Origin: a virus
DNA: 54,602 nucleotides
IMG/VR virus record: IMGVR_UViG_3300011438_000003
Span: 1-54,602 of that record
Reading direction: 5' to 3' (one strand)
Shown: piece after piece, positions 1,988 to 32,757 of the stretch
Position numbering within the stretch: the first letter of the stretch is position 1
Layout of the letters: every line of letters starts with the position of its first letter
Program-made: the position numbers and the translations under genes
Notes under the pieces: model-generated
Databases searched by the model: none
What the model was told of the DNA's origin: nothing
Seen by the model: only the letters and a program-made list of their open reading frames with translations

Positions 1988-2376
1988 GGAGGCGGAGCAC
2001 GGCGATCCTGGTTGGGGCGGGATTGGCGGGCGTGAGCTAGAACCGAGCGAGCGTCATCGACGGAGCGGACGACCTCGTAGATGCCGCCGAGTTCACGAAC
2101 GACGCGCGCCCAGTTGATTTGGTCGTCGCTCTGTTTCGAGCCGGGGCGATGTGTTTTGACTTCTAGGGCGACGAGTCGACCGAGCGGGGCGAGGATCCCG
2201 ATGATGTCGGCGGAGCCGGGGGCGAGACCGAACCGGACCAAGCGCCCAGTAGAATCGTAGAGGGCACCGGTTGAATTGCGCCAGACACGGAAGTCTGACT
2301 CATTGCCCAAAGCGAGAAGGATCTCCTTGAGTAAAGGAGCCTCGCGCTGCGGCTTCTTTAGGTGATCGGCAGTCAT
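1984..2376 (-). CDS. VRR-NUC family (D/E)xK nuclease, 130 aa
   Basis: 'GSADIIGILAPLGRLVALEVKT' matches the GxxD...ExK core of VRR-NUC. ATG 2376 sits in an ATGA overlap with the helicase stop. The upstream 19 codons of ORF 1984..2433 are rejected. Confidence 0.7.
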   Translation of the reverse strand: MTADHLKKPQREAPLLKEILLALGNESDFRVWRNSTGALYDSTGRLVRFGLAPGSADIIGILAPLGRLVALEVKTHRPGSKQSDDQINWARVVRELGGIYEVVRSVDDARSVLAHARQSRPNQDRRAPPP

Positions 2377-3650
2377 CTGACCTCCGCGCCTGGCCAATGC
2401 CGGTAGCGAATTTTGTACTGCACAGCGGGCCACTTGGGCGAGTAGCCGCGCGCCGCAGCGGTAGCGACGAGCGCTTGGTAAGTGCGCTTCTTCTCAGCAA
2501 CGGTGTGGGTCGCTAGAACTTTTTGGATCTGCTCCCTTCGGATGCGAGGGTCAGGTTTGCCCTTGCTGCGAGCTCCGCAGCTTGGGCACGTGGCGTCGTG
2601 GTACTCAACGGCGCGGAATACTCTTTGGCAGGAGCGGCACTGGCGGATGGCTTCGGTGACATCGCCCCCCGTGGAAATCGCCTTACCTTCTAGGCTGTAA
2701 GAGCGGTCTTCGTCCGGCATGCCGTGCAGGTAGACGGAGCCGCGTAGATCGATCACTACGGCGCGGAGCTTGCCGGGGTAGGGGCGGACGATCCGGCCGA
2801 TGCGTTGAATCCACGCGCCTGGGGTAGAGACGCCGGTGCAGATGATGGCGCACGAGACGCTAGGATCGTCGTAGCCCTCGGTGAGTAGTTGAACGTTGGT
2901 AAGGATCAGTAGTTCGCCAGAGCGGTGCGCAGCGAGCCGAGCCGCCCTGAGTTCTTCCGGCATCTTCCCGTCAACGCAGCCCGCGGGGATGCCGGCGTCA
3001 CGGAAGTCGTCGGCTACTTGCTGCGCGTGCTTGACGTCGCGGCAGAAGACGATCGCTTTCTGTCCGGGCGCGTGTTGCTGATAAGCCTTGACCGGGTGCT
3101 CCGACATAGCGCGGGTAGGGCCCGCTGGAGCGATCACGTCGCACGGGACGAGGAACCCCGCAGCGATGAGCTCGCGGGGTTGCGCAGCCGTAACAAGAGC
3201 GTCGGCCAGGTTGCCGAGGGCCGCGCCGTCTCCGCGCTCGGGGGTGGCGGTAAGGGCGAGGGTTGGGCCTGTGCGCGCGGGGGCAATGGCTGGCGACCAT
3301 TGCTCTGTGCCGTAGAGGTGATGACATTCGTCGAGCACGTACCAATCCGCGCCGATGGGGATGTGGCCGCCTTGGACCATACAGAACCGCACGCGGGGGC
3401 CGCCGAAGAGCATCGCGTTCATCGCTTGCTCGAGTAGTTCTTGACGGTGTGCTACCCAAACGCCGATGCCAGCTGGAGCTCGTTGCCGCATCGCCCACTC
3501 GACCGCCGTGGTGGTCTTACCCGAACCAGTTGGCGCAACGAGGCACACGGTGCGAGCACCGCGCAAGCGTGCGGCTTCGTCCTTGGCGAGCGCTTCCACC
3601 TGGTACGGCCGGAGCTCGCGCGGGGCGGGGAGGGACTGCGCGGAGGTCAT
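2373..3650 (-). CDS. DEAD/DEAH-box SF2 helicase with a C-terminal Zn-ribbon, 425 aa
   Basis: Motif I 'APTGSGKT', motif II 'DECH', motif III 'TATP', motif VI-like 'QRIGRIVR', and 'CRSCQ...CPSCG'. Confidence 0.85.
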   Translation of the reverse strand: MTSAQSLPAPRELRPYQVEALAKDEAARLRGARTVCLVAPTGSGKTTTAVEWAMRQRAPAGIGVWVAHRQELLEQAMNAMLFGGPRVRFCMVQGGHIPIGADWYVLDECHHLYGTEQWSPAIAPARTGPTLALTATPERGDGAALGNLADALVTAAQPRELIAAGFLVPCDVIAPAGPTRAMSEHPVKAYQQHAPGQKAIVFCRDVKHAQQVADDFRDAGIPAGCVDGKMPEELRAARLAAHRSGELLILTNVQLLTEGYDDPSVSCAIICTGVSTPGAWIQRIGRIVRPYPGKLRAVVIDLRGSVYLHGMPDEDRSYSLEGKAISTGGDVTEAIRQCRSCQRVFRAVEYHDATCPSCGARSKGKPDPRIRREQIQKVLATHTVAEKKRTYQALVATAAARGYSPKWPAVQYKIRYRHWPGAEVR

Positions 3651-9264: not shown

Positions 9265-9558
9265 CTAGCGAGCGGTTGGCTTGCGGCTCTTGGCGACTGC
9301 TGCGGCCACCGTCCGAACGGTGGGGGAAGGACCGACGCCGGAGATGAGCCAATCGAGCGACAGGCCGAAGACTCTGGCGATGCGTTCGGAGACCATCGAA
9401 CCTGGGTCGGGTCTGTCTCCCGACTCGATGCGGGAGCAGTACCCGGGGGAGACGCCGATCAGCTTGTCGAGCTCTCGTGCGCTTATCCCGGCCAGCTCGC
9501 GAGCTGCTTCCAATCGTTTCCCTATCCCACGGCTCAAGTCCCTTACGGTTGCCAGCAT
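9265..9558 (-). CDS. XRE-family HTH repressor (CI-like, no peptidase domain), 97 aa
   Basis: 'IGKRLEAARELAGISARELDKLIGVSPGYCSRIESGDR...ARVFGLSLDWLISGVG' is a typical HTH_3 domain. ATG 9558 is chosen over 9618 on domain spacing. No SD upstream. Confidence 0.75.
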   Translation of the reverse strand: MLATVRDLSRGIGKRLEAARELAGISARELDKLIGVSPGYCSRIESGDRPDPGSMVSERIARVFGLSLDWLISGVGPSPTVRTVAAAVAKSRKPTAR

Positions 9559-9564
9559 CGTGCG

Positions 9565-9592
9565 GACTAAAGTACACAGTACGACTTTAGTC
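9565..9592. promoter_or_regulatory. Inverted repeat GACTAAAGT-N10-ACTTTAGTC between the divergent XRE genes (candidate operator)
   Basis: Read directly. Lies 7 nt upstream of the CI-like start codon. Confidence 0.7.
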
Positions 9593-9661
9593 GTCAAGCG
9601 GGAATCGGCGTCGACCATCCGCGCTGGTGACTTTGGTCGTCGGCTGCGCGATGATGGCGCG

Positions 9662-11495: not shown

Positions 11496-11911
11496 GCGAC
11501 TGGACCGACCAGGCGGAGAAGATCGCCGCCGATAAAGGGCTAATCGTGGTCCGCCCGCAGCCGAACGAGCTGTTTGTCGACATTGACGATGCGGATGGCC
11601 ACGCGGTGTTCGTGAAGCATCTTCCCATCCTTGGGGAGCTGGTAGCGAGCCACACGATCGCGCCGAGTCCAAGCGGCGGCGCCTATCGCTTCCACGCTAG
11701 GGTGATGTTGTCGCGCAACGTCTTCGACGAACTGGAGCGCGTCTTTCTGCAAACGTTGCTCGGCTCGGACCGGTTGCACGAGGTTCTGAGCTGGCGCGCG
11801 GCGACGCGAGGCGTAACCGGCGTGACCGTGTTCTTCGAGAAACCTACCAACGGAGTGGCGCTGCAAGCCGCCACTGAGAAGCCGATAGATGCAACGGAGA
11901 TCCCATGGTGA
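11492..11911 (+). CDS. Hypothetical protein, 139 aa (GTG start)
   Basis: GTGA overlap at 11492-11495. In frame with ORF 11339..11911, whose upstream part is R-rich. Confidence 0.55.
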   Translation: MSDWTDQAEKIAADKGLIVVRPQPNELFVDIDDADGHAVFVKHLPILGELVASHTIAPSPSGGAYRFHARVMLSRNVFDELERVFLQTLLGSDRLHEVLSWRAATRGVTGVTVFFEKPTNGVALQAATEKPIDATEIPW

Positions 11912-12324
11912 GACGACACGGGTTGCGCGGGATGCGCTCCAGATACCTCAATGCACAAATCGCCATGAATCGCGCCGACGACGCGACCGAAGCTGGGCTC
12001 TTCGAGCTTGCCATTCGCGAGTACGGCACGGCGATCGAGGCATTCCGCGCCGACTTCGAAGAGCGGCGCGACCCTCGGTCGAACATGCTGCGCGAGCGCT
12101 GCGAAGCGGCCATCGCGGCGCTGTCGCCGAAAGACGTGGTTGCTGAAAAGCAAGGGTCCGTCCCACCGACGCCGGTACTCGGTTCCGCGAAAACCGGCAC
12201 TTCTCCCACTCCGCTCGCGCGCACCGAGCCCGAGCCGGACTGGGCGGAGAGCTTCGCCACGCAGCAAGCGGTGCTCGACGGCACCAACGCACTCTACGGA
12301 CCAAGCGAAAGGCGGACGAAGTGA
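11905..12324 (+). CDS. Hypothetical protein, 139 aa
   Basis: ORF with a 7-nt overlap to the previous gene. Helical N-terminal half. Confidence 0.55.
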   Translation: MVRRHGLRGMRSRYLNAQIAMNRADDATEAGLFELAIREYGTAIEAFRADFEERRDPRSNMLRERCEAAIAALSPKDVVAEKQGSVPPTPVLGSAKTGTSPTPLARTEPEPDWAESFATQQAVLDGTNALYGPSERRTK

Positions 12325-13775
12325 AACTGTTGCTCATTGACCTGTCGAGCGTCTTCTATCCTGCATGGCACATGAGAGACGGGAAGGACACCAACTTCCC
12401 CTACCAGGTGACGATCGAGCGCGTTCGAACGCTTGCCGCGCCGCATGATCACGTTGCCGTGCTTTGCGACTCCGGGCGATCGTTCCGCAAGGACATCTCG
12501 CCCGAGTACAAGGCGAACCGACCCGACAAGGACGAGGCGCTTATCGACCAGATCACGCGCGCCGAAGAGACACTCGCCAAAGACGGCTACCTCGTTCTGC
12601 GCGCGCCCGGCTTCGAGGCTGACGACTTGATCGCCACGATGGTCGCGTGGGCTGACCCGCAGGATCAGATCGAGACCACGGTCGCATCGTCGGACAAGGA
12701 TTTGCTTTCTCTCGTGGACGAACGCGTGCGCATCTACAGCCTAACGAAGGGCGTCACGCTCGGTATTCCCGATGTCGAAGCGAAGTTCGGGGTCAAGCCG
12801 TGGCAGATGCGCGATTTTTTGGCGTTGTGCGGTGACAGCTCGGACAACGTGCGCGGGATTCCTGGCGTTGGCCCGAAGACAGCCGCGAAGCTGCTTACCG
12901 ACTTCGGCGACATTGCTGGGATCTATTCGGCACTGAAGCAAGCGCCCGACGACGTGGCGACGCCGAGTGTGCGCAAGGCGCTGGCGGAAAACGTGGGTAA
13001 CCTCGACATCGCGATCAAGCTCGTAACGCTGCGCACGGACGCTCCGATCGACTGCGCTGCGGTGCTCTTGCCGCGCGAGGTCAAGCCGCTGGCTCAAGTC
13101 AACGAAGGCGAATTCACAGAGGAGGAAGACGTGGAAACGGACCCAACGAATCAGGCGAAGAGCGAACCAACGACCGCAATGACCAACACCGTAACGGACC
13201 TTCCGAAGCCGGCAACCGCCATCCAGCGCGCAAAGCTCGAAGAGGCTCCCGCGCCCGAAGATTGGGACAAGGCGCTCGAGCCGCGCACGCCAGGCCAGGC
13301 CGTTGTGATGGCTGGCAAGCTCTTCGATTCGCGGATGTTCGCCGGCTACGGCAACGAGAACGCCGTGCTTTCCACCATCCTGCTCGGCCGAGAGCTTGGC
13401 ATCGGCGCCATGGGCAGCCTTCGCGGAATCCACAATATAAAGGGGAAACACGCTCTTTCGGCTGACCTCATGGCCGCGCTCGTGATCCAGTCGGGGAAGG
13501 CGAAGTTCTTCGAGCCTGTGCTGCTCACGGCAACCAAGGCGACCTACCGCACGCATCGGATTGGCTCCGAGAAGCCCTTCGAGATGACCTTCGACTTCGA
13601 AGAGGCTCGTGTAGCTGGGCTCGTGAAGGACGATTCTGGCTGGGCCAAGTGGCCGATCGACATGTGCAAGGCGCGTTGTATCGCGCGGCTGGCGCGCACC
13701 ATCTACCCGGATGTTTGCTTCGGGTTGTACGTGCAGGAAGAGCTGGAGAGCATCAACGAAAGGGCGGCGGCGTGA
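12321..13775 (+). CDS. Fusion protein: FEN-type 5'-3' exonuclease (PIN + H3TH), acidic linker, then RecT-like single-strand annealing domain, 484 aa
   Basis: N-terminus: 'LLLIDLSSVFY', 'FRKDISPEYKANR', 'GFEADDLIAT', 'SSDKDLLSL', 'GDSSDNVRGIPGVGPKTAAKLL' (Pol I 5'-nuclease/FEN motifs). C-terminus: 'ILLGRELGIGAMGSLRGIHNIKGKHALSADLMAALVIQSGK...WAKWPIDMCKARCIARLARTIYPDV' (RecT-family pattern). GTG start in a GTGA overlap. Confidence 0.8.
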   Translation: MKLLLIDLSSVFYPAWHMRDGKDTNFPYQVTIERVRTLAAPHDHVAVLCDSGRSFRKDISPEYKANRPDKDEALIDQITRAEETLAKDGYLVLRAPGFEADDLIATMVAWADPQDQIETTVASSDKDLLSLVDERVRIYSLTKGVTLGIPDVEAKFGVKPWQMRDFLALCGDSSDNVRGIPGVGPKTAAKLLTDFGDIAGIYSALKQAPDDVATPSVRKALAENVGNLDIAIKLVTLRTDAPIDCAAVLLPREVKPLAQVNEGEFTEEEDVETDPTNQAKSEPTTAMTNTVTDLPKPATAIQRAKLEEAPAPEDWDKALEPRTPGQAVVMAGKLFDSRMFAGYGNENAVLSTILLGRELGIGAMGSLRGIHNIKGKHALSADLMAALVIQSGKAKFFEPVLLTATKATYRTHRIGSEKPFEMTFDFEEARVAGLVKDDSGWAKWPIDMCKARCIARLARTIYPDVCFGLYVQEELESINERAAA

Positions 13776-14275
13776 TGGGCGGCCCGAGGAATCCAGACGT
13801 TACCGTCGAGGACGAGAAGACCGTGGCGGCGCTGCTCCGGCTGATTCTCGACGAGATGAAAAAGCTCAACGCTGCTGCTTCGCGCCGAGCCGCAGCGACG
13901 AACGGCGCCACCGTTGCGTCCGACTACGATCTGGATAGCCAGTACGGTGACGAACAGGTCAAGTTCTCGCCGCGGGACTGGACGGGCGCCGACATCAAAG
14001 GGCTACCGATGAGCAACTGCCCGCCCGAAGCGCTCGATCTGCTGGCCAACGCGTTCGACTTCTTTGCGAAGAAGAACGAAGGCAAGATGACCGACAAGGG
14101 GAAGCCAAAAAGCGACTTCGACAAGCGCTCCGCCTCGCGCGCCCGAGGGTGGGCCATTCGGTTGCGCGCCGGTTGGAAGCCGCGCCAGGCGTCAACGTCG
14201 ACAAGCAGCGGCGCCGACTTCGATGACGCCAGCTTCGAGCCCGACGAGTTCGGCGACGCAATGCCTGACCTATGA
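13775..14275 (+). CDS. Hypothetical protein with an acidic C-terminal tail, 166 aa
   Basis: The ATG shares 1 nt with the previous stop. Tail is 'ADFDDASFEPDEFGDAMPDL'. Confidence 0.6.
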   Translation: MGGPRNPDVTVEDEKTVAALLRLILDEMKKLNAAASRRAAATNGATVASDYDLDSQYGDEQVKFSPRDWTGADIKGLPMSNCPPEALDLLANAFDFFAKKNEGKMTDKGKPKSDFDKRSASRARGWAIRLRAGWKPRQASTSTSSGADFDDASFEPDEFGDAMPDL

Positions 14276-14535
14276 ACGCCGCAGCAAACTGTAATGGGGA
14301 CGACATGCCGTCGCCCTTGGAAATCACCCTTCGCAAGAGTTTGAGGAAGACCATGCCCCCGCCCCCCGCAACGACGACACCGCCCGCCGACAAGAAGCGC
14401 AAGCCGCGCGCCGCGAACTGGATGCGCGACGCGAAGCAGCTCACCGACACCCTTTCGCTGTACTCGGCCGAGAAGCGGCAGAAGCTGATCGACTTCGTGC
14501 TCGCTGGGCTTAGTAGCGGAGTGGAAGACCTGTGA
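14272..14535 (+). CDS. Hypothetical protein, 87 aa
   Basis: ATGA overlap. Confidence 0.5.
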   Translation: MNAAANCNGDDMPSPLEITLRKSLRKTMPPPPATTTPPADKKRKPRAANWMRDAKQLTDTLSLYSAEKRQKLIDFVLAGLSSGVEDL

Positions 14536-15044
14536 CTCTCGTAAGCAAACTTGAACGGCAGTTCTTGGGGGCTCGCATCGATGCCAGCCTGCAAACCAAG
14601 CTCGGCGAGTTTCACCGCGCAATGGGCGTGCCTATCCTGCCCACGCCACAGGTGCCGAGCGACGACCGTGTGCGGCTCCGATGCCGGCTCATTCTCGAGG
14701 AGTGCCTCGAGTTCATCGAGTCTTGCGTCGACGTAGGAGAAGGTCAGCCGTGGCACGTATCCTTCAAAAGCGCTGCCCTGAACTTCGCCGCAGCGATTGA
14801 CAAGTCAGCCGTGCGCGTCGATCTGCCCCTGGCAGCCGATGCGCTCGCTGACATCGCATATGTCGTCGAAGGGTCGAACCTGGAGTTCGGAATCGACTCG
14901 GGCCCTGTGCTCGACGAAGTGCAGCGCGCAAACATGGCCAAGGCGAATGGTCCAAGGCGCGCGGACGGGAAGGTCATGAAGCCAGAAGGGTGGACGGCGC
15001 CCGACATCGCCGGAGTACTTGAAAGGCAGAAGGCCGAACAGTGA
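14532..15044 (+). CDS. MazG-like nucleotide pyrophosphohydrolase, 170 aa
   Basis: 'LGEFHRAMGVP', 'RLRCRLILEECLEFIE', 'DALADIAYVVEGSNLEFGID', 'EVQRANMAKANG....DGKVMKPEGWTAPDI' match the all-alpha NTP-PPase (MazG/HisE-like) phage family. GTG start. Confidence 0.7.
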   Translation: MTLVSKLERQFLGARIDASLQTKLGEFHRAMGVPILPTPQVPSDDRVRLRCRLILEECLEFIESCVDVGEGQPWHVSFKSAALNFAAAIDKSAVRVDLPLAADALADIAYVVEGSNLEFGIDSGPVLDEVQRANMAKANGPRRADGKVMKPEGWTAPDIAGVLERQKAEQ

Positions 15045-15232
15045 ATTTAACCGAGCTCGTAGATCTCCTCTTCACCCCGATGTCGCCGTGCGCGTACGCG
15101 AAGCTAGCGGCGCGCGCGTCGGCGGAGACTCAACTCGCATTGATCGGGCTGCGGCTAAGTTGGAAAGTACTTTCTCGCGCGCGCGACGTGTCGGCGGGCT
15201 CGGCGTTGGAGTACCGGATTATCAGCTCATGA
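15041..15232 (+). CDS. Hypothetical protein, 63 aa (GTG start)
   Basis: It fills the gap exactly, with a GTGA overlap at 15041 and an ATGA overlap at 15229. Confidence 0.4.
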   Translation: MNLTELVDLLFTPMSPCAYAKLAARASAETQLALIGLRLSWKVLSRARDVSAGSALEYRIISS

Positions 15233-15735
15233 GCGGCTTCGCGTCCAGCACGTCGGTACCGGTCGAGCGATCCAAGATCGAGTTGGATCGGTTACTGGCG
15301 AAGCATGGCGCAACGCAGCGAGGGACTGCACACGACGACGAAGCCGGGTTCGCGGTCGTATTCTTCGCGCTGAGCAGTCGTCAGATCCGTCTACAGATTC
15401 CGCTGCCGAAGGTGGAGGAGTTCGCCAAGCGTCCCGATCCGTATTGGGCTGGGCACTTCAAAGCCGTCACCAACGATCAGAAGTTCAAGAACTGGGAGCA
15501 GGCGTGCCGCACTCGATGGCGCTGCATGCTGCTCATCGTCAAGGCAAAGCTGGAGTTGATCGAGATGAAGCTGTCGACGGTGGATCGAGAGTTCTTGGCT
15601 GACATCACATTGCCCGACGGGCGAAGCGTGGGCGAGTGGCTCAAGCCAGGTATCGAACAGGCGTACATGGGAGGGAAGATGCCGCCGATGTTGGGCATGG
15701 GGAGCGGTCCTGTTGAGGGAGAGTTAGAGCCATGA
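15229..15735 (+). CDS. Hypothetical protein, 168 aa
   Basis: Internal ATG of ORF 15019..15735. The conserved-looking 'RCMLLIVKAKLELIEMKLSTVDREFLADITLPDGRSVGEWL' recalls an uncharacterised phage early-protein family. Confidence 0.6.
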   Translation: MSGFASSTSVPVERSKIELDRLLAKHGATQRGTAHDDEAGFAVVFFALSSRQIRLQIPLPKVEEFAKRPDPYWAGHFKAVTNDQKFKNWEQACRTRWRCMLLIVKAKLELIEMKLSTVDREFLADITLPDGRSVGEWLKPGIEQAYMGGKMPPMLGMGSGPVEGELEP

Positions 15736-16138: not shown

Positions 16139-16335
16139 CCTCCACCCCGACGCTCGACAAGATGGCAGCGACCTTCTCGCTCCCCGGCAGCACCACCTCG
16201 CCAGCCGCGGGCACGACCGCCGTGGTGGGCATGGAGTCGCTGCCGGCGGCTGAGAGGGAGGAGCTGGAGGCGAAGACGGCGGCGAAGAGGGAAGAATCGT
16301 TGAAGATGCTACGTCCGAAGAAAGGGAAGCGATAA
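16135..16335 (+). CDS. Hypothetical protein, 66 aa (GTG start)
   Basis: GTGA overlap at 16135. In frame with ORF 16099..16335. Confidence 0.45.
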   Translation: MTSTPTLDKMAATFSLPGSTTSPAAGTTAVVGMESLPAAEREELEAKTAAKREESLKMLRPKKGKR

Positions 16336-16943
16336 TGCCGACGGGATTTACTGCGATGATCGAGGAACGCGATGACGTCACGTTCGAGGAGTTCTGCTGG
16401 GCGTGTGCTCGCGGGATGGGCGCCTGCGTCATGATGCGAGAATCAAGATTCGACGCACCCGTTACCGACGAAGACGTGCAGGACAACAGCACATATTACG
16501 CGGACGAGCTTGCGAAGAACAAGAAGAAGCTGGCAGCGCTCGCCGAGATGCATCCTGCCCAGGTGCAGATCTTGGCGAAGGAGGAGTTCGAGCAGGCGAT
16601 GGTGAACCGCCTGGACGCCATCAAGAAAGACGCGGAGCAGGCGGCTCGCTACGACAAGATCCGCCGCAAGGTCGAAGCGTGGGTCCCTCCGACGCCGGAC
16701 CACGTCGGACTGAAAGAGTTCATGCTGCAGCAGATTCAGGTCTCGACCGAGTACCGCTATGATCGGCCTGCGCCCGTTCTCAAGTCAGCCGACGCGTGGA
16801 TGGCACAGGAGTTCGAGATCCTGACGCGACGGATCGTAAGGGGAAACGAAGATCTCGCCGGGCAGAACGGGCGCAACGCGGAGCGTGTCGCGTGGATTCG
16901 GGCGCTTCGTGAATCGGTGCCGCAGCCGAAGGCGAAGCGATGA
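16335..16943 (+). CDS. Hypothetical protein, 202 aa
   Basis: TAATG junction. Balanced composition. Confidence 0.65.
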   Translation: MPTGFTAMIEERDDVTFEEFCWACARGMGACVMMRESRFDAPVTDEDVQDNSTYYADELAKNKKKLAALAEMHPAQVQILAKEEFEQAMVNRLDAIKKDAEQAARYDKIRRKVEAWVPPTPDHVGLKEFMLQQIQVSTEYRYDRPAPVLKSADAWMAQEFEILTRRIVRGNEDLAGQNGRNAERVAWIRALRESVPQPKAKR

Positions 16944-17917: not shown

Positions 17918-18345
17918 GTGACGCCGTCACACTTCTAACGAAAGCGCAAGCTGCGCAGTTTTGCAGTGTTTCGGTGACGTCTTTCGAGCGCCACGTTCAG
18001 GCGAACGTCGAATACACTACCGTCGGTCGGCGGCTGCTCTTCTACCGCGACTCCCTCCAGCGATGGCTCGACGATCGCAAGGTTTCGCCCTCAAGCTCCA
18101 CCAAAAGGGGATCTGGTACGTCCGGTTCACGCACCAAGGGCGGCGGACCGATGTCAGCACTGGAGCAAGAGATCATGCGCAAGCTGTTGAAGCCGCGCAA
18201 GGGATCTACGCCGAGACCATCTCTGGCAAAAGGCGAGCGCCGCCCGTCCACCAAAGCGGCGGGTCCGGGATTATCGAAGTCGGCACGCGCTGGCTTGCAG
18301 CGGTCTCGACCGAGCTCGACCCCCTCACCGTCGAGCAATACCTGA
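17914..18345 (+). CDS. xis: Excisionase-family (MerR-like HTH_17) DNA-binding ORF. Only the first ~55 aa look genuine; the tail overlaps int out of frame
   Basis: 'LLTKAQAAQFCSVSVTSFERHVQ...VGRRLLFYRDSLQRWLDDR' is an Xis-type HTH. Residues after ~55 are an S/P/G/R-rich alternate frame of the integrase gene. Confidence 0.55.
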   Translation: MSDAVTLLTKAQAAQFCSVSVTSFERHVQANVEYTTVGRRLLFYRDSLQRWLDDRKVSPSSSTKRGSGTSGSRTKGGGPMSALEQEIMRKLLKPRKGSTPRPSLAKGERRPSTKAAGPGLSKSARAGLQRSRPSSTPSPSSNT

Positions 18346-19088
18346 TGTACACCCGCGCCCACTTCGCCCCATTCTTCGGCACCATCGGCGCCGTGACGAC
18401 GACCAGCGCGGAGTCCTACATCCGCAAGCGGCTCGGCGCTGTACAACGGGACACCGTTCTGAAAGAGCTGTCCGGGCTACGCGGGTTGGTCGGCTGGGCG
18501 GCAGGGGAGGGGTACATCAGCGAGATCCCCCACATCCCGTCACCGCAGAAGAAGGCTACCGGGGAGGTCGTCTACGAGCGCAAGGTGACCGAGCTCTCGC
18601 CCGTTCAAGTCGCCCGCTTCCTTCGGGCTGTAGGCGATCGGCACCTCGCCCGCGAGTACTTCGGACTGATGTACGAGACCACGCTACGGCCCGCCACGCT
18701 GCAAGCGCTGAGCGTTCCCGAACACTTCAGGCAAGGAGCGAAGATGTTGACGATCGAAGACGCGATAGACAAGGCCCGCTTCGGTAGGGAACTGCCGTTG
18801 ACCGCCAAGGCTCGCCAGCTGCTCAAGGCGGCCTCCCCGAAAGCCGGGCTCATCTTCGGCCAGCACGACTACCGAACGCAGCTAGCGAACGCCTGCGCAC
18901 GGGCGAAGTTGCCGCTTTTTACCCCCTACGACCTGCGTCATGCTAGGGCTACCCACCTCCTTGAAACCTCCGGCAACCTTCCAGGTGTGGCGTACCTGCT
19001 CGGACATCGCAATACCGCGACAACGAGCGCGCGCTACGTACATCCGAGCCTGCGAGCTGCCCGTGATGTTTTGGGGAGGCGAAAGTGA
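18063..19088 (+). CDS. int: Tyrosine integrase, 341 aa
   Basis: SAM-like N-domain ('LTVEQYLMYTRAHFAPFFG'). Catalytic residues in 'TTLRPATLQAL' (R), 'TPYDLRHARATHLL' (HxxR), 'LLGH' and 'TSARYVH' (Y). ATG 18063 chosen within ORF 17961..19088. Confidence 0.9.
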   Translation: MARRSQGFALKLHQKGIWYVRFTHQGRRTDVSTGARDHAQAVEAAQGIYAETISGKRRAPPVHQSGGSGIIEVGTRWLAAVSTELDPLTVEQYLMYTRAHFAPFFGTIGAVTTTSAESYIRKRLGAVQRDTVLKELSGLRGLVGWAAGEGYISEIPHIPSPQKKATGEVVYERKVTELSPVQVARFLRAVGDRHLAREYFGLMYETTLRPATLQALSVPEHFRQGAKMLTIEDAIDKARFGRELPLTAKARQLLKAASPKAGLIFGQHDYRTQLANACARAKLPLFTPYDLRHARATHLLETSGNLPGVAYLLGHRNTATTSARYVHPSLRAARDVLGRRK

Positions 19089-29656: not shown

Positions 29657-29953
29657 TCACCAGAACACCATGATTGCTGTCGCGGTCGTTCCGTTGCCGG
29701 ACGATCGAAGCACCTTCGCCTCTACAGGCAAGATCGTTCCGGGCGCCAGGGCTGGTGTCGTGTCGTTCGTGCCATCTGGTCGAGTGAGAGCAACGACGCC
29801 ACCGCTGACAACATGGATCTCGCGCGGGGTGAGCTTCACGCCGGTATCCGAGGCGGACCGACCAGGACCGTCCGTCGTCAGATCGACATCGGAGGCGAAC
29901 GTCGTGTAGGACTTCCAGTAGCGCGATGGTGAAAGAAGGCTTCTGTCGGACAT
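29657..29953 (-). CDS. Small virion-associated protein (hypothetical), 98 aa
   Basis: ORF between the ejection-like protein and fibre genes. TAATG junction. Confidence 0.55.
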   Translation of the reverse strand: MSDRSLLSPSRYWKSYTTFASDVDLTTDGPGRSASDTGVKLTPREIHVVSGGVVALTRPDGTNDTTPALAPGTILPVEAKVLRSSGNGTTATAIMVFW

Positions 29954-32757
29954 TACGGACTCTCCAGTTTCTCGCTCATGGTCATGTGACTATCGGCGGT
30001 ATCAATCTTCCGCTTCGGCGCGACGGCGCCCGTTGCTTCTGCGTTCGCTTGCTCCGGCGCGCTTCCCCTCGCTGAGCTGTGCATGGCTTGGATCTTCGCG
30101 ATGAATGCAGGGTCCAGCGTCGGGTCCGTCGCGACGCCAGTCAGCTGCCACAGCTCGAGCTTCGCGTCGTACGGCAGTTCTTTCCCATCAGCCGCGAGCT
30201 CGGCGGCTTCCGAGGTCAGCATGCCGACGAACTTCTCGTGTAGCTTCGGCGCGGCCTTTCGGAACGCCTCGACGCCTTCGGGCGAGAGCTTGCCCTTCTC
30301 GAAATCCTTCACGACCGACATCGGATCTTTGGCCGCCTCGAAGGCGCGGAGGAACTCGCCCATCTGTGTATCCGCAGGCTCTGGATGGCGAGCGGAAGGG
30401 AACCCGCCGGCCGGTGCGGTCAGCGTTGGGATCTTGCTTTGCAGGTATGCGAGCGTGTCGACGTTGCGCTTCGCTATCGAGGCGGAGACGTTCGGCGCCG
30501 CTCGACTCGTCTCGTCTCCGAGCATGCGATCGAGGCGCGCTTGCGTGCGGTCGGGTGCGCTTGCAGCGTCCGCCACGTGCGAGACGGCGCTGTGGTAGTC
30601 GATCCGGTCGTCGATGCCGCTGCGTACCGCCGCGCGCCCCACGTCGGTGGCGGTGTCCTTCGCGATGCGTACGGCCTTCTTGCCGAACGCCTTCACACCA
30701 TCGAACATCTCGCTGTCGACCCGCGCACCGAGGCGCTCGATCGCAGCGAGCTGGCGGACTGCCTGCCCGGGTCGCGTCAACGCGCCCGCGACGGCCCCCA
30801 CAGCAGCGCCCACGGGGCCGCCGAACGCGAGACCGCCGAGCAGGCCCCCCATGCTCCCGAAGCCGCCAGAGTCGCCAGCCTCCAAAGCTTTGAGCTGATT
30901 CGACAGCGTGAGCGTCTTCTCTGCCTGGTCGATCGTCTTCTTGAAGCCTTCGGTGCTGCGGATGACCTTTCCGAACTCAGCGAGCCGAGCAGGATCGAGG
31001 TCGGCCAGCTGCGTGATGGCTTCGGCGAGGTCCTGGCTGTTGGCTAGGTGGTCGCGGATCGTCTGATGGATCAGGTCGTTCTTGGGGCTCGTCAGGCCGT
31101 TTACGTAGCCGTCGATCTTGGCGGGATCGGCCGTGGTGTTACGCACCCACGGATTCGCAGGATCGCGACCGAGCGGCGTCGAAAGGCGCTGCTCGAACAG
31201 GTTCTTCGTGTCGAGATATTTTGCCCACGCCTTGTTGATGCGCTGCTGATCGATCGCCGTCTTCCCCCACATGCCCTCGTCTTCGAGGCCCTGGCGGAGG
31301 TTCTCGTATAGACCGCGGACCTCCCCAGATACGGCCATGTCGCTCGACGTCGTCATGAACGTGCCCGGCTTCGCGAGCTTGCCGAGTCGCTTCTTCAGGT
31401 TGTCCAGCTCGACGTAAGCCTTCGTGCCGGACCCCTCCGCAGCAGCGTCCGCGATGCCGCGATCCGCGAGGTTCAGAAACCGGTCCATCTTCTTGAGGTC
31501 GGCGACCTGGCCGAAGGCGTCGCGGTCCGCCAGCATCTCCGTTACCTTCGAGCGGATGTCGGCAACATGCCCCTGCGCGAACTCGAGCTGCTGATCGAGT
31601 GCCTCCTGACCCTTTCGGATCGAGCGCTCGACGTGGCCAGGCTTTAGCCCGCCCATGTACTCCTCTTGCAGGTTCTTGGTCGCGCCGTTCAGCTCGTCGA
31701 TGTGATCGCGGACAGCGCGCTTCGCAGCGTCGCGCATGGCGTCGCCCTCATAGACTGCAACGCGCCGCGCCTCCCGACCAGCCTCCCCGAGGTTCTGCGG
31801 GCCGAGCGTTCGGATCGCGTCGATGTCCTTTCCGCTCGCCGCTGCCGAAGCCTTCGCCCACGCCTCACCGAGCCCGGGAGCCGCTTCGCCGAACTGACGC
31901 TCGGCCAGCGCTTCGACGTCGCGCGGCGAGATCATCCGCTTCACCTTGTCCAGCGCAGCGCCGCCAACAGCCTCGACACCACCCAGTGCTCCGCCGAACA
32001 GGGCGCCCACACCGAAGCCGTCTTTCGCGCCGGCCAGCACCTTCTCGGCCGTAAGCTCGTGGTCCGGCCCGAGCGACGCTTCCGAAATCGCGTCACCCGC
32101 TCCGATGATCGCGCCCTCCGTACCCATGCGGGCCGCACTGGCTAGCCCCTTCTGCGCTACACGGCCAAGCAGCGACTCCGCACCGGTGCCGACGAGCCCC
32201 TGCGTGACCCGCTCGGCGAACTGGCCAGCGGCCGACATGCCTTCGAGAGGAGCGGCGGCGAGCTCGGCAGCGGCACCTACGCCACGAACGCCCTTGAACA
32301 TCTTGGCGGCGGCGCCAGGAGCGAGGAACCCGGCAACCTTGCCGATCCCACCTGAAACCGGATTCGTCTCGGCCCGAAGCCGCATTTCGTCCGCGAGCTC
32401 GGGGGAGATCTGCGACGCCAGGTAGTCAGTCGCGCCAAACGACGCCGTTCCCGCGGCCCGCTCCAGCGCCGTGCGCACCTGCTGGTCGGCCGTGCCAAGC
32501 CGCTCGCGGGTGAGGGTCTGATCGATCTGCTGCTTCGACGCCTTGCGGTACTGCCCCGGGTCGAGCTGGTCGGCCTCGGACTTGTCGACATCGAACACGC
32601 CTCCCGACGTGTCGGTAACAAACACACGTCCAGCGGACTTCTTCCCAGCGTCCTCTGGTGGAAGCTGTTGGGTAATGTCCGTCGTCGGCACGGGCGCAGC
32701 AGCTGCCAGCTCCTCGGGCGTAGCGGGCCGCGTGGGTCCTTTTGCGGGCTTCGCCAT
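29953..32757 (-). CDS. Large alpha-helical internal virion / ejection (tape-measure-like) protein, 934 aa
   Basis: Ala/Leu/Glu-rich helical sequence with Gly-zipper segments ('GGLLGGLAFGGPVGAAVGAVAGAL'). Position after the nozzle-like gene. Confidence 0.55.
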   Translation of the reverse strand: MAKPAKGPTRPATPEELAAAAPVPTTDITQQLPPEDAGKKSAGRVFVTDTSGGVFDVDKSEADQLDPGQYRKASKQQIDQTLTRERLGTADQQVRTALERAAGTASFGATDYLASQISPELADEMRLRAETNPVSGGIGKVAGFLAPGAAAKMFKGVRGVGAAAELAAAPLEGMSAAGQFAERVTQGLVGTGAESLLGRVAQKGLASAARMGTEGAIIGAGDAISEASLGPDHELTAEKVLAGAKDGFGVGALFGGALGGVEAVGGAALDKVKRMISPRDVEALAERQFGEAAPGLGEAWAKASAAASGKDIDAIRTLGPQNLGEAGREARRVAVYEGDAMRDAAKRAVRDHIDELNGATKNLQEEYMGGLKPGHVERSIRKGQEALDQQLEFAQGHVADIRSKVTEMLADRDAFGQVADLKKMDRFLNLADRGIADAAAEGSGTKAYVELDNLKKRLGKLAKPGTFMTTSSDMAVSGEVRGLYENLRQGLEDEGMWGKTAIDQQRINKAWAKYLDTKNLFEQRLSTPLGRDPANPWVRNTTADPAKIDGYVNGLTSPKNDLIHQTIRDHLANSQDLAEAITQLADLDPARLAEFGKVIRSTEGFKKTIDQAEKTLTLSNQLKALEAGDSGGFGSMGGLLGGLAFGGPVGAAVGAVAGALTRPGQAVRQLAAIERLGARVDSEMFDGVKAFGKKAVRIAKDTATDVGRAAVRSGIDDRIDYHSAVSHVADAASAPDRTQARLDRMLGDETSRAAPNVSASIAKRNVDTLAYLQSKIPTLTAPAGGFPSARHPEPADTQMGEFLRAFEAAKDPMSVVKDFEKGKLSPEGVEAFRKAAPKLHEKFVGMLTSEAAELAADGKELPYDAKLELWQLTGVATDPTLDPAFIAKIQAMHSSARGSAPEQANAEATGAVAPKRKIDTADSHMTMSEKLESP

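Follow-up and report, generated by a model that had tools for sequence, protein, structure and literature searches.

We describe a gene in the IMG/VR virus record IMGVR_UViG_3300011438_000003 which encodes a flap endonuclease (FEN)-type 5'-3' nuclease and a RecT-like annealase on one polypeptide. The whole stretch of DNA analysed, referred to here as the window, comprises positions 1 to 54,602 of that record and is essentially the whole of a metagenomic contig of ~54.6 kb from a temperate tailed phage. The fusion gene lies at 12321..13775 on the plus strand (GTG start, TGA stop, 484 aa). The initial annotation, made from the sequence without database searches, had proposed this combination of domains, and the assignments hold for both halves. 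It is almost certain that the fused architecture is real and conserved, and probable, judging from the organisation of related loci, that the protein serves as a recombination module, with the FEN domain in place of the exonuclease partner. The architecture, which had been regarded as unusual, is in fact common in environmental phages and is only unrecognised in annotation. The view of a one-protein module stands in part: the fusion is real, but the module probably also includes the gene conserved directly downstream and may include an internal start within the linker.

A database search for the same architecture recovered at least 120 full-length homologues. The 120 best matches, which form the homologue set used below, are all full length (471-608 aa), with ~100% query coverage and 41-71% identity. 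In the window, the stop codon of the upstream open reading frame (ORF) overlaps the GTG start of the fusion gene (gTGA) and the ATG of the next gene overlaps its TGA stop (TGATG); based on these overlaps on both sides, the gene is predicted to be a member of a translationally coupled operon. The upstream gene (11905-12324) was considered as a part of the module and ruled out, since it is not conserved in other loci.

Residues 1-255 (12321..13085, plus strand) constitute a FEN / Pol I-type 5'-3' nuclease domain, consisting of a PIN-like domain and an H3TH region. Both Pfam models match above their cutoffs, in agreement with the earlier assignment of this half: 5_3_exonuc_N (PF02739) covers residues 2-157 (E 5.7e-30, 104.6 bits vs a cutoff of 34.3) and 5_3_exonuc (PF01367, H3TH) covers residues 158-246 (E 1.2e-24, 87 bits vs a cutoff of 40). 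The H3TH motif GIPGVGPKTAAKLL is present in the translation at residues 179-192 (12855-12896, plus strand), as quoted in the initial annotation. The full-length AlphaFold2 (AF2) model, built on the 120 homologues, has a mean predicted local distance difference test (pLDDT) score of 89.1, and residues 1-250 score above 90. Foldseek against the PDB matches the N-terminal domain to E. coli ExoIX/Xni (TMt 0.88-0.90; 0.88 for 3zdb), with further matches to M. smegmatis FenA, T5 FEN and Taq Pol I. The family profile against PDB sequences gives Taq Pol I (E 1.3e-42), Xni (E 1.4e-39) and T5 FEN (7e-21), while the scores of the NCBIfam equivalog models are far under their cutoffs (191 bits vs 720 for Pol I; 135 vs 261 for Xni).

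Ten residues of the nuclease domain are invariant among the 120 homologues (E99, D101, D102, D125, D127, D172, D175, Y63, K64 and R67), and D7 and D50 are conserved in at least 90% of them. We take the conserved carboxylates and Y63/K64/R67 to be the two-metal carboxylates and the helical-arch residues, respectively, of the bacterial and phage FENs (T5, Taq). Since all the catalytic carboxylates and arch residues are conserved, the nuclease looks catalytically intact.

Concerning the C-terminal region, residues ~306-484 (13236..13772, plus strand) contain the core of a RecT/Red-beta-family single-strand annealing protein (SSAP), and the protein ends right after this core. Only 10 aa follow the invariant E474 in the fusion; in the 120 homologues the tail past this residue is 1-13 aa long (median 10). 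The quoted RecT-family pattern, GRELGIGAMGSLRGIHNIKGKHALSADLM...WAKWPIDMCKARCIARLARTIYPDV, is also present in the translation. The outcome for the RecT assignment differs between measures: the Pfam RecT model (PF03837) scores just below its cutoff on the fusion itself, whereas the PHROG RecT-like families (phrog_4171, E 3.6e-12; phrog_561, E 3.5e-11) and the Red-beta fold match agree with the assignment. When 15 homologous C-domains are compared with the same Pfam model, 14 match at E<=0.01, the best at 2e-7, and a precomputed PF03837 match exists for about 31 of the 120 homologues. Thus, the annealase assignment is weaker by Pfam and strong by the other measures.

The AF2 model of residues 301-484 has a pLDDT of 91.5, and its sole significant Foldseek match in the PDB is the N-terminal domain of lambda Red-beta, 7UJL (E 1.7e-4, probability 1.0, TM 0.52/0.58, 155 aligned columns). 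The C-domain profile against PDB sequences is aligned to Red-beta residues 98-180. Residues W441, M448, R452, R459, Y470 and E474, which are invariant or nearly so in the alignment of the 120 homologues, align with Red-beta W143, M150, K154, R161, Y170 and E174, respectively. A phmmer search of the PDB with the C-domain alone found no match, so that Red-beta is reached only by the profile and fold searches, and NCBIfam contains no model for the C-domain. RecT-like genes of Propionibacterium, Gordonia and Salinibacter phages were found by tblastn. Strand annealing by the C-domain is thus predicted from its family membership and modelled fold.

The two domains are joined by a linker at residues ~256-305 (13086..13235, plus strand), which is acidic, rich in Ala, Pro, Glu, Thr and Asp and disordered in the AF2 model (pLDDT <50 for residues 277-305), in accordance with the acidic Pro/Thr-rich linker noted earlier. 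Across the 120 homologues the linker is weakly conserved, 43-109 aa in length and rich in the same residues. A low-complexity, poorly conserved linker, in which moreover a start codon in the reading frame is preceded by a Shine-Dalgarno-like sequence, is what would be expected if an assembly or sequencing artefact had joined adjacent FEN and RecT genes through a missed stop or a linker frameshift. This explanation is effectively refuted: the open frame is intact in 120/120 top homologues, in 51 IMG/VR contigs and in at least 95 distinct 50%-identity clusters, the linker varies in length without any stop codon, and the viral UniProt entry A0A6J5MUB0 (462 aa) aligns across 481 columns. The fused frame is kept in more than 100 independent assemblies, which settles the question of a missed stop or frameshift.

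The fusion is widespread in sequence databases. A full-library HMMER search with the C-domain alone gave 15,179 relatives at E<=1e-3, 156 of them at E<=1e-30. Among the best 150 representatives at 50% identity, 95 are extended at the N-terminus by at least 270 aa and lack a tail; the FEN domain is found in 88/88 new representatives of at least 440 aa, and many of the shorter ones are fragments which start within the FEN domain. In IMG/VR, a C-domain relative is encoded in 215 phage stretches, and in 51 of the best 80 of these 215 loci the C-domain is fused in frame behind a FEN domain. A tblastn search of INPHARED with the full protein gave half-length (FEN) matches only and no fused gene in the cultured phages. 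Pol I 5' nuclease domains dominate the matches listed in a GTDB scan with the full-length alignment, which is therefore uninformative on host taxonomy. The database names reflect only the N-terminal half: '5'-3' exonuclease', '5'-3' exonuclease H3TH domain-containing protein' (in metagenome-assembled genomes of Kofleriaceae and Vicinamibacterales) and, for A0A6J5MUB0, 'PIN_53EXO domain containing protein'.

The comparison with relatives that lack the fusion is the basis for our reading of its function. The same IMG/VR scan contains 26 standalone annealase-domain relatives (32-43% identity). The fused and standalone profiles align with a probability of 100% (hhalign, E 1.4e-47), and the fused domain corresponds to residues 33-186 of the 275 residues in the standalone proteins. 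A PD-(D/E)XK nuclease adjoins the standalone annealase in 20-21 of the 26 loci, and 20 neighbouring ORFs match PDDEXK_1. In 18 loci, this is a ~180-aa Cas4-like gene (PF12705) located directly upstream of the annealase (e.g. L140:5199-5741, plus strand); three loci have different forms. In Burkholderia phage phiE131, the neighbour of the standalone annealase is a YqaJ-like gene.

The fused loci differ from these in three linked ways, namely in the nearby nuclease, in the annealase tail and in the gene directly downstream. No PDDEXK_1 or Cas4 is found among the 25 listed of 41 Pfam families matched by 150 neighbouring ORFs in 23 fused loci. Custom hidden Markov models (HMMs) of the standalone-locus nucleases gave one weak match (L097, E 8e-4) across 54 fused loci (637 kb, including the window). 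In the window itself, where ~60 ORFs were scanned against Pfam or PHROGs, there is no match to YqaJ, lambda-Exo, RecE or PD-(D/E)XK, and the custom HMMs built from the sister-locus partner nucleases have no match either; the earlier observation that no separate exonuclease gene is visible nearby is thus borne out over these ORFs. The annealases also differ in their C-terminal end: the standalone proteins carry a helical-looking tail of 76-268 aa (in those of the Cas4-like pairs, a helical C-terminal domain (CTD) of ~90 aa), vs 0-12 aa in 50/51 fused loci. In lambda, the Red-beta CTD binds both Exo and the C-terminal peptide of SSB, the single-stranded DNA-binding protein (PMC6393309). Because the fused loci are essentially without the PD-(D/E)XK nuclease and, with one exception, without the CTD, the simplest reading of these sequences is that the tethered FEN displaced both the exonuclease and the domain that held it. 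The suggestion that a FEN stands in place of a partner of the lambda Exo/RecE/YqaJ type therefore gains comparative support from standalone vs fused loci.

Regarding the standalone loci themselves, the Cas4-like gene and the annealase form a compact exonuclease-annealase pair of low-GC phages (loci within L131-L164). Two loci are without the Cas4-like nuclease: in one, the upstream gene (L132:4983-5528, plus strand) belongs to the Sipho_Gp157 family (E 2.5e-33), and in the other the ORF (L138:4430-4999, plus strand) clusters with that gene by BLASTP. The split form, a standalone FEN beside a standalone SSAP, occurs in none of the 26 standalone loci. The FEN of Bacillus phage BalMu-1 was also considered; this phage is Mu-like, has Gam and lacks an SSAP, so it is uninformative on an adjacent annealase.

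Directly 3' of the fusion gene lies the gene of a 166-aa protein (13775..14275, plus strand), referred to here as the partner, the ATG of which overlaps the fusion stop. It is found directly downstream in 36/54 fused loci vs 0/28 standalone loci (e.g. L083:11551-11988, L084:11498-11956 and L089:6571-7050; members of ~135-172 aa). Databases contain at least 590 homologues, every one under the name 'hypothetical', and no match was found for the family in Pfam (28 members, E<=1), PDB sequences, NCBIfam or PHROG. Its conserved core reads …DLDG.YGDP.VK..PRDW.G…SECPPEYLDLLA.R.DYFA…ARARGWA.R.R.G, and a variable segment leads from it to an acidic tip, such as DDDIPF, DDDVPF, DVPF, DDGF or IKW. The C-terminal residue is F or W in 70/120 members, an aromatic residue lies within the last three positions in 109/120, and the last 15 residues have a median net acidic charge of +4; the copy of the window ends …DEFGDAMPDL. 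We take this acidic tip with its terminal aromatic residue to be the signature of the C-terminal tip of bacterial SSB (SSB-Ct, DDDIPF).

Two identities of the partner were tried and rejected. A canonical SSB with an oligonucleotide-binding (OB) fold (PF00436) has no support in Pfam, PDB or NCBIfam, and the sequence looks helical. A split-off annealase CTD, suggested by a superficial EYL..F.D.W/Y resemblance, has an hhalign probability of 0.25%. Since SSB is bound by E. coli ExoIX (PMC1919509), to which the N-terminal domain is structurally closest, a contact between the partner tip and the FEN domain is plausible by analogy.

Some family members depart from the common layout. One fused gene has an 80-aa tail (L134:4996-6744), a 751-aa ORF has a longer N-terminal extension (L157:4216-6471), and the weak Cas4-like ORF mentioned above (L097:4556-5263) lies downstream of the fusion and partner genes; these three may be evolutionary intermediates. 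On a 315-kb contig, a 435-aa gene of the AAA_23 type (SMC/RecF-like ATPase; L083:8697-10004, plus strand) overlaps the start of the fusion gene. A gene of this type was not seen in the window.

The linker contains a candidate internal start at 13119..13133 (plus strand), consisting of GAGGAGG (13119-13125), a 5-nt spacer (aagac) and an in-frame GTG (13131-13133). This GTG is codon 271, and the predicted annealase-only product is ~214 aa long. In an otherwise unconserved part of the linker, the column of V271 contains Met in 76/120 and Val in 9/120 homologues, preceded by Glu/Asp-rich residues. For the in-frame ATG/GTG codons in the linkers of 52 fused genes, the best Shine-Dalgarno pairing averages -7.14 kcal/mol, compared with -6.00 +/- 0.30 for codon-shuffled linkers, and the observed value is reached by 0/300 shuffles; pairing of -8 or below is present in 23/52 genes, whereas the shuffled linkers give a mean of 11.2 such genes and at most 20. 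Of the ATG/GTG codons in frame, 8.8% show pairing of this strength when they lie in the linker, compared with 0.3% of those within the FEN part and 2.4% of those within the annealase part. The genuine partner-gene starts average -6.7. This enrichment is to be read with the relatedness of the sequences in mind, and with the fact that an acidic linker composition favours GAG/GGA strings. In several members, the GGAG motif is kept with peptides that are not acidic (SGGR in L146; Lys-Glu in L118, L121 and L139), which argues for a constraint at the nucleotide rather than the peptide level. Based on these sequences, an annealase-only isoform of about 206-246 aa from the linker start is plausible, at roughly even odds; if made, it would solve the problem posed by a 1:1 ratio of nuclease to annealase.

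We propose the following course of events for the module. The FEN domain would chew the 5' strand from duplex ends, nicks or gaps, like the T7 gene 6 and T5 D15 exonucleases. The tethered annealase would load in cis on the emerging 3' strand, with the covalent link in place of the Exo-CTD contact, and would pair it with complementary single-stranded DNA (ssDNA), for example at a replication fork or on another resected end; the FEN domain may also trim the 5' flaps of the annealed product. The start codon and ribosome-binding site of the linker may supply extra annealase-only protein for filament formation, and the translationally coupled partner, with its SSB-tail-like tip, may act as an adaptor or SSB surrogate. 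Gibson assembly relies on the same chemistry, with T5 exonuclease acting first and annealing following. The T7 gene 6 protein, which has been implicated in recombination, combines a duplex-specific 5'-3' exonuclease with a flap endonuclease activity (PMC4124056).

Several points weigh against resection and annealing by the fusion. On the sequence side, Pfam RecT gives it 20.8-22.8 bits with a gathering cutoff of 24, and the neighbour scans are based on crude ORF calls with Pfam-level sensitivity, which a novel exonuclease fold nearby could escape. Concerning the enzymology, FENs are often distributive and structure-specific, so that long-tract resection is not assured, and host nucleases could perform it instead. 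A 1:1 stoichiometry of nuclease and annealase is awkward for a filament unless the internal start is real. In addition, C-terminally truncated Red-beta is reported to anneal DNA but to give no recombination in vivo (PMC5052646); an annealase without a CTD would thus have to gain access to SSB-coated DNA differently, possibly with the help of the partner.

The main rival reading is that the fusion is a finishing enzyme of recombination or replication, in which the annealase pairs strands exposed by host nucleases or replication and the FEN domain only trims 5' flaps or RNA primers, enabling ligation. The Pol I 5' nuclease and ExoIX/Xni, to which the N-terminal domain is most similar, process flaps and nicks, and Y63, K64 and R67 of the helical arch are invariant; each filament protomer would bear a flexibly tethered FEN, which suits processing along the annealed duplex, and the T7 gene 6 protein has been proposed to remove primers too (PMC4124056). 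We nevertheless consider an exclusively finishing role unlikely, because fused and standalone loci differ exactly in the PD-(D/E)XK nuclease and the exonuclease-binding CTD, which indicates a replacement and not an addition. The two roles are compatible and not mutually exclusive. Another explanation is that the RecT-like domain has lost annealing and only binds ssDNA or oligomerises, targeting to replication intermediates a FEN that removes primers or degrades host DNA. The truncated annealase without a CTD and the sub-threshold Pfam score would fit such a replication nuclease, as would the fact that the phage encodes a primase and helicase while a polymerase or primer-removal enzyme is not recognisable in it. 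It is improbable given that the C-domain core is conserved as strongly as the nuclease, retains the six residues aligned with Red-beta (W441, M448, R452, R459, Y470 and E474) and spans the complete DNA-binding core of the standalone SSAPs which are paired with exonucleases.

Within the reading of the fusion as a recombination module with a FEN in place of the exonuclease partner, a more speculative extension, which we offer tentatively, is a self-contained system of three products from two coupled genes: the cis-loading fusion, the filament-building annealase isoform and a non-OB-fold mimic of the SSB tip. This mimic would recruit the fusion, or would hijack or decoy the host SSB-interaction hub. 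Such a system would carry its own 'SSB interface' and might escape the host-specificity that limits the portability of RecT and Red-beta.

In the window, the fusion gene is located downstream of the XRE-type repressor/Cro region (repressor at 9265-9618, minus strand) and upstream of a tyrosine integrase (17961-19088), and its homologues on long contigs are found in similar prophage early regions. A MazG-like pyrophosphohydrolase gene (14532-15044) lies between the partner gene and early-operon genes that match PHROG families of unknown function: 15019-15735 (plus strand; phrog_17260, E 2.3e-37) and 16335-16943 (plus strand; phrog_8905, E 1.1e-26). The minus strand encodes a primase (66-2000) and a helicase (2373-3650); there is no recognisable polymerase or primer-removal enzyme in the window, nor a match to an SSB family among the ~60 ORFs scanned against Pfam or PHROGs. 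Terminase and portal genes are also present, as well as a weak tape-measure-like match (29953-32757, minus strand, E 3.1e-5). Among 40 window ORFs, one has a match to the LexA DNA-binding domain (E 3.9e-23) and one to Cpn10/GroES (E 2.6e-10), a phage-encoded co-chaperonin.

The lambda Red and RecET annealases are the basis of recombineering and are increasingly used in CRISPR-assisted knock-in. In the textbook layout, a PD-(D/E)XK exonuclease works with a separate annealase, the CTD of which contacts the exonuclease and the host SSB. The family described here points to a different solution, repeatedly maintained in evolution: a FEN tethered to an annealase core without a CTD, with its own SSB-tail-like partner. 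If the family is active, the current '5'-3' exonuclease' annotation hides hundreds of phage recombinases, the fusion would be a compact single-ORF exo-annealase for engineering, notably in soil bacteria of high GC content (hosts of the Myxococcota and Acidobacteriota types), in which Red/RecET perform poorly, and the family would be a natural experiment on the purpose of the Exo-annealase and annealase-SSB contacts. The partner would then add a new protein family to the SSB-tail interaction network.

Compared with known systems, the fusion resembles lambda Red (Exo and Beta) and RecE/RecT of Rac in that a 5'-3' nuclease is coupled to an annealase of the RecT/Red-beta fold in a phage early operon. 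Unlike in these systems, the nuclease has a FEN fold (PIN-like and H3TH) and not a PD-(D/E)XK fold, both activities are on one polypeptide and the annealase is without the CTD that binds Exo and SSB; unlike in lambda Red, a protein with an SSB-tail-like tip occupies the place of Gam. The standalone Cas4-like and SSAP pairs, and gp44/gp43 of phiE131, have a homologous annealase core (32-43% identity), but with a separate nuclease gene, a helical CTD of ~90 aa or longer and no SSB-tail-like downstream gene. The Pol I 5' nuclease and ExoIX (Xni) are the best sequence and structure matches to residues 1-255; unlike Pol I the fusion has no polymerase domain, and unlike both it is fused to an annealase and encoded by a phage. 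T7 gene 6 and T5 D15 are duplex 5'-3' exonucleases of the FEN family implicated in phage recombination (PMC4124056). In T7 and T5, unlike in the fusion, the nuclease and the annealing factor are separate, the annealing partner of T7 has an OB fold and not a RecT/Red-beta fold, and T5 FEN is more distant from the N-terminal domain of the fusion than Pol I and Xni are. The annealing-capable ssDNA-binding protein T7 gp2.5 carries a C-terminal acidic tail whose last residue is aromatic, which is reminiscent of the partner protein. A literature search, the coverage of which was incomplete so that an earlier mention is possible, found no description of a FEN-RecT or FEN-annealase fusion; such a fusion is mentioned neither in a 2023 structural review of exonuclease-annealase pairs (PMC11611040) nor by Lopes et al. 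2010. The fusion is therefore an apparently undescribed form of the single-strand annealing two-component recombinase type, in which the nuclease fold differs, the linkage is covalent, the CTD has been lost and the accessory protein is new.

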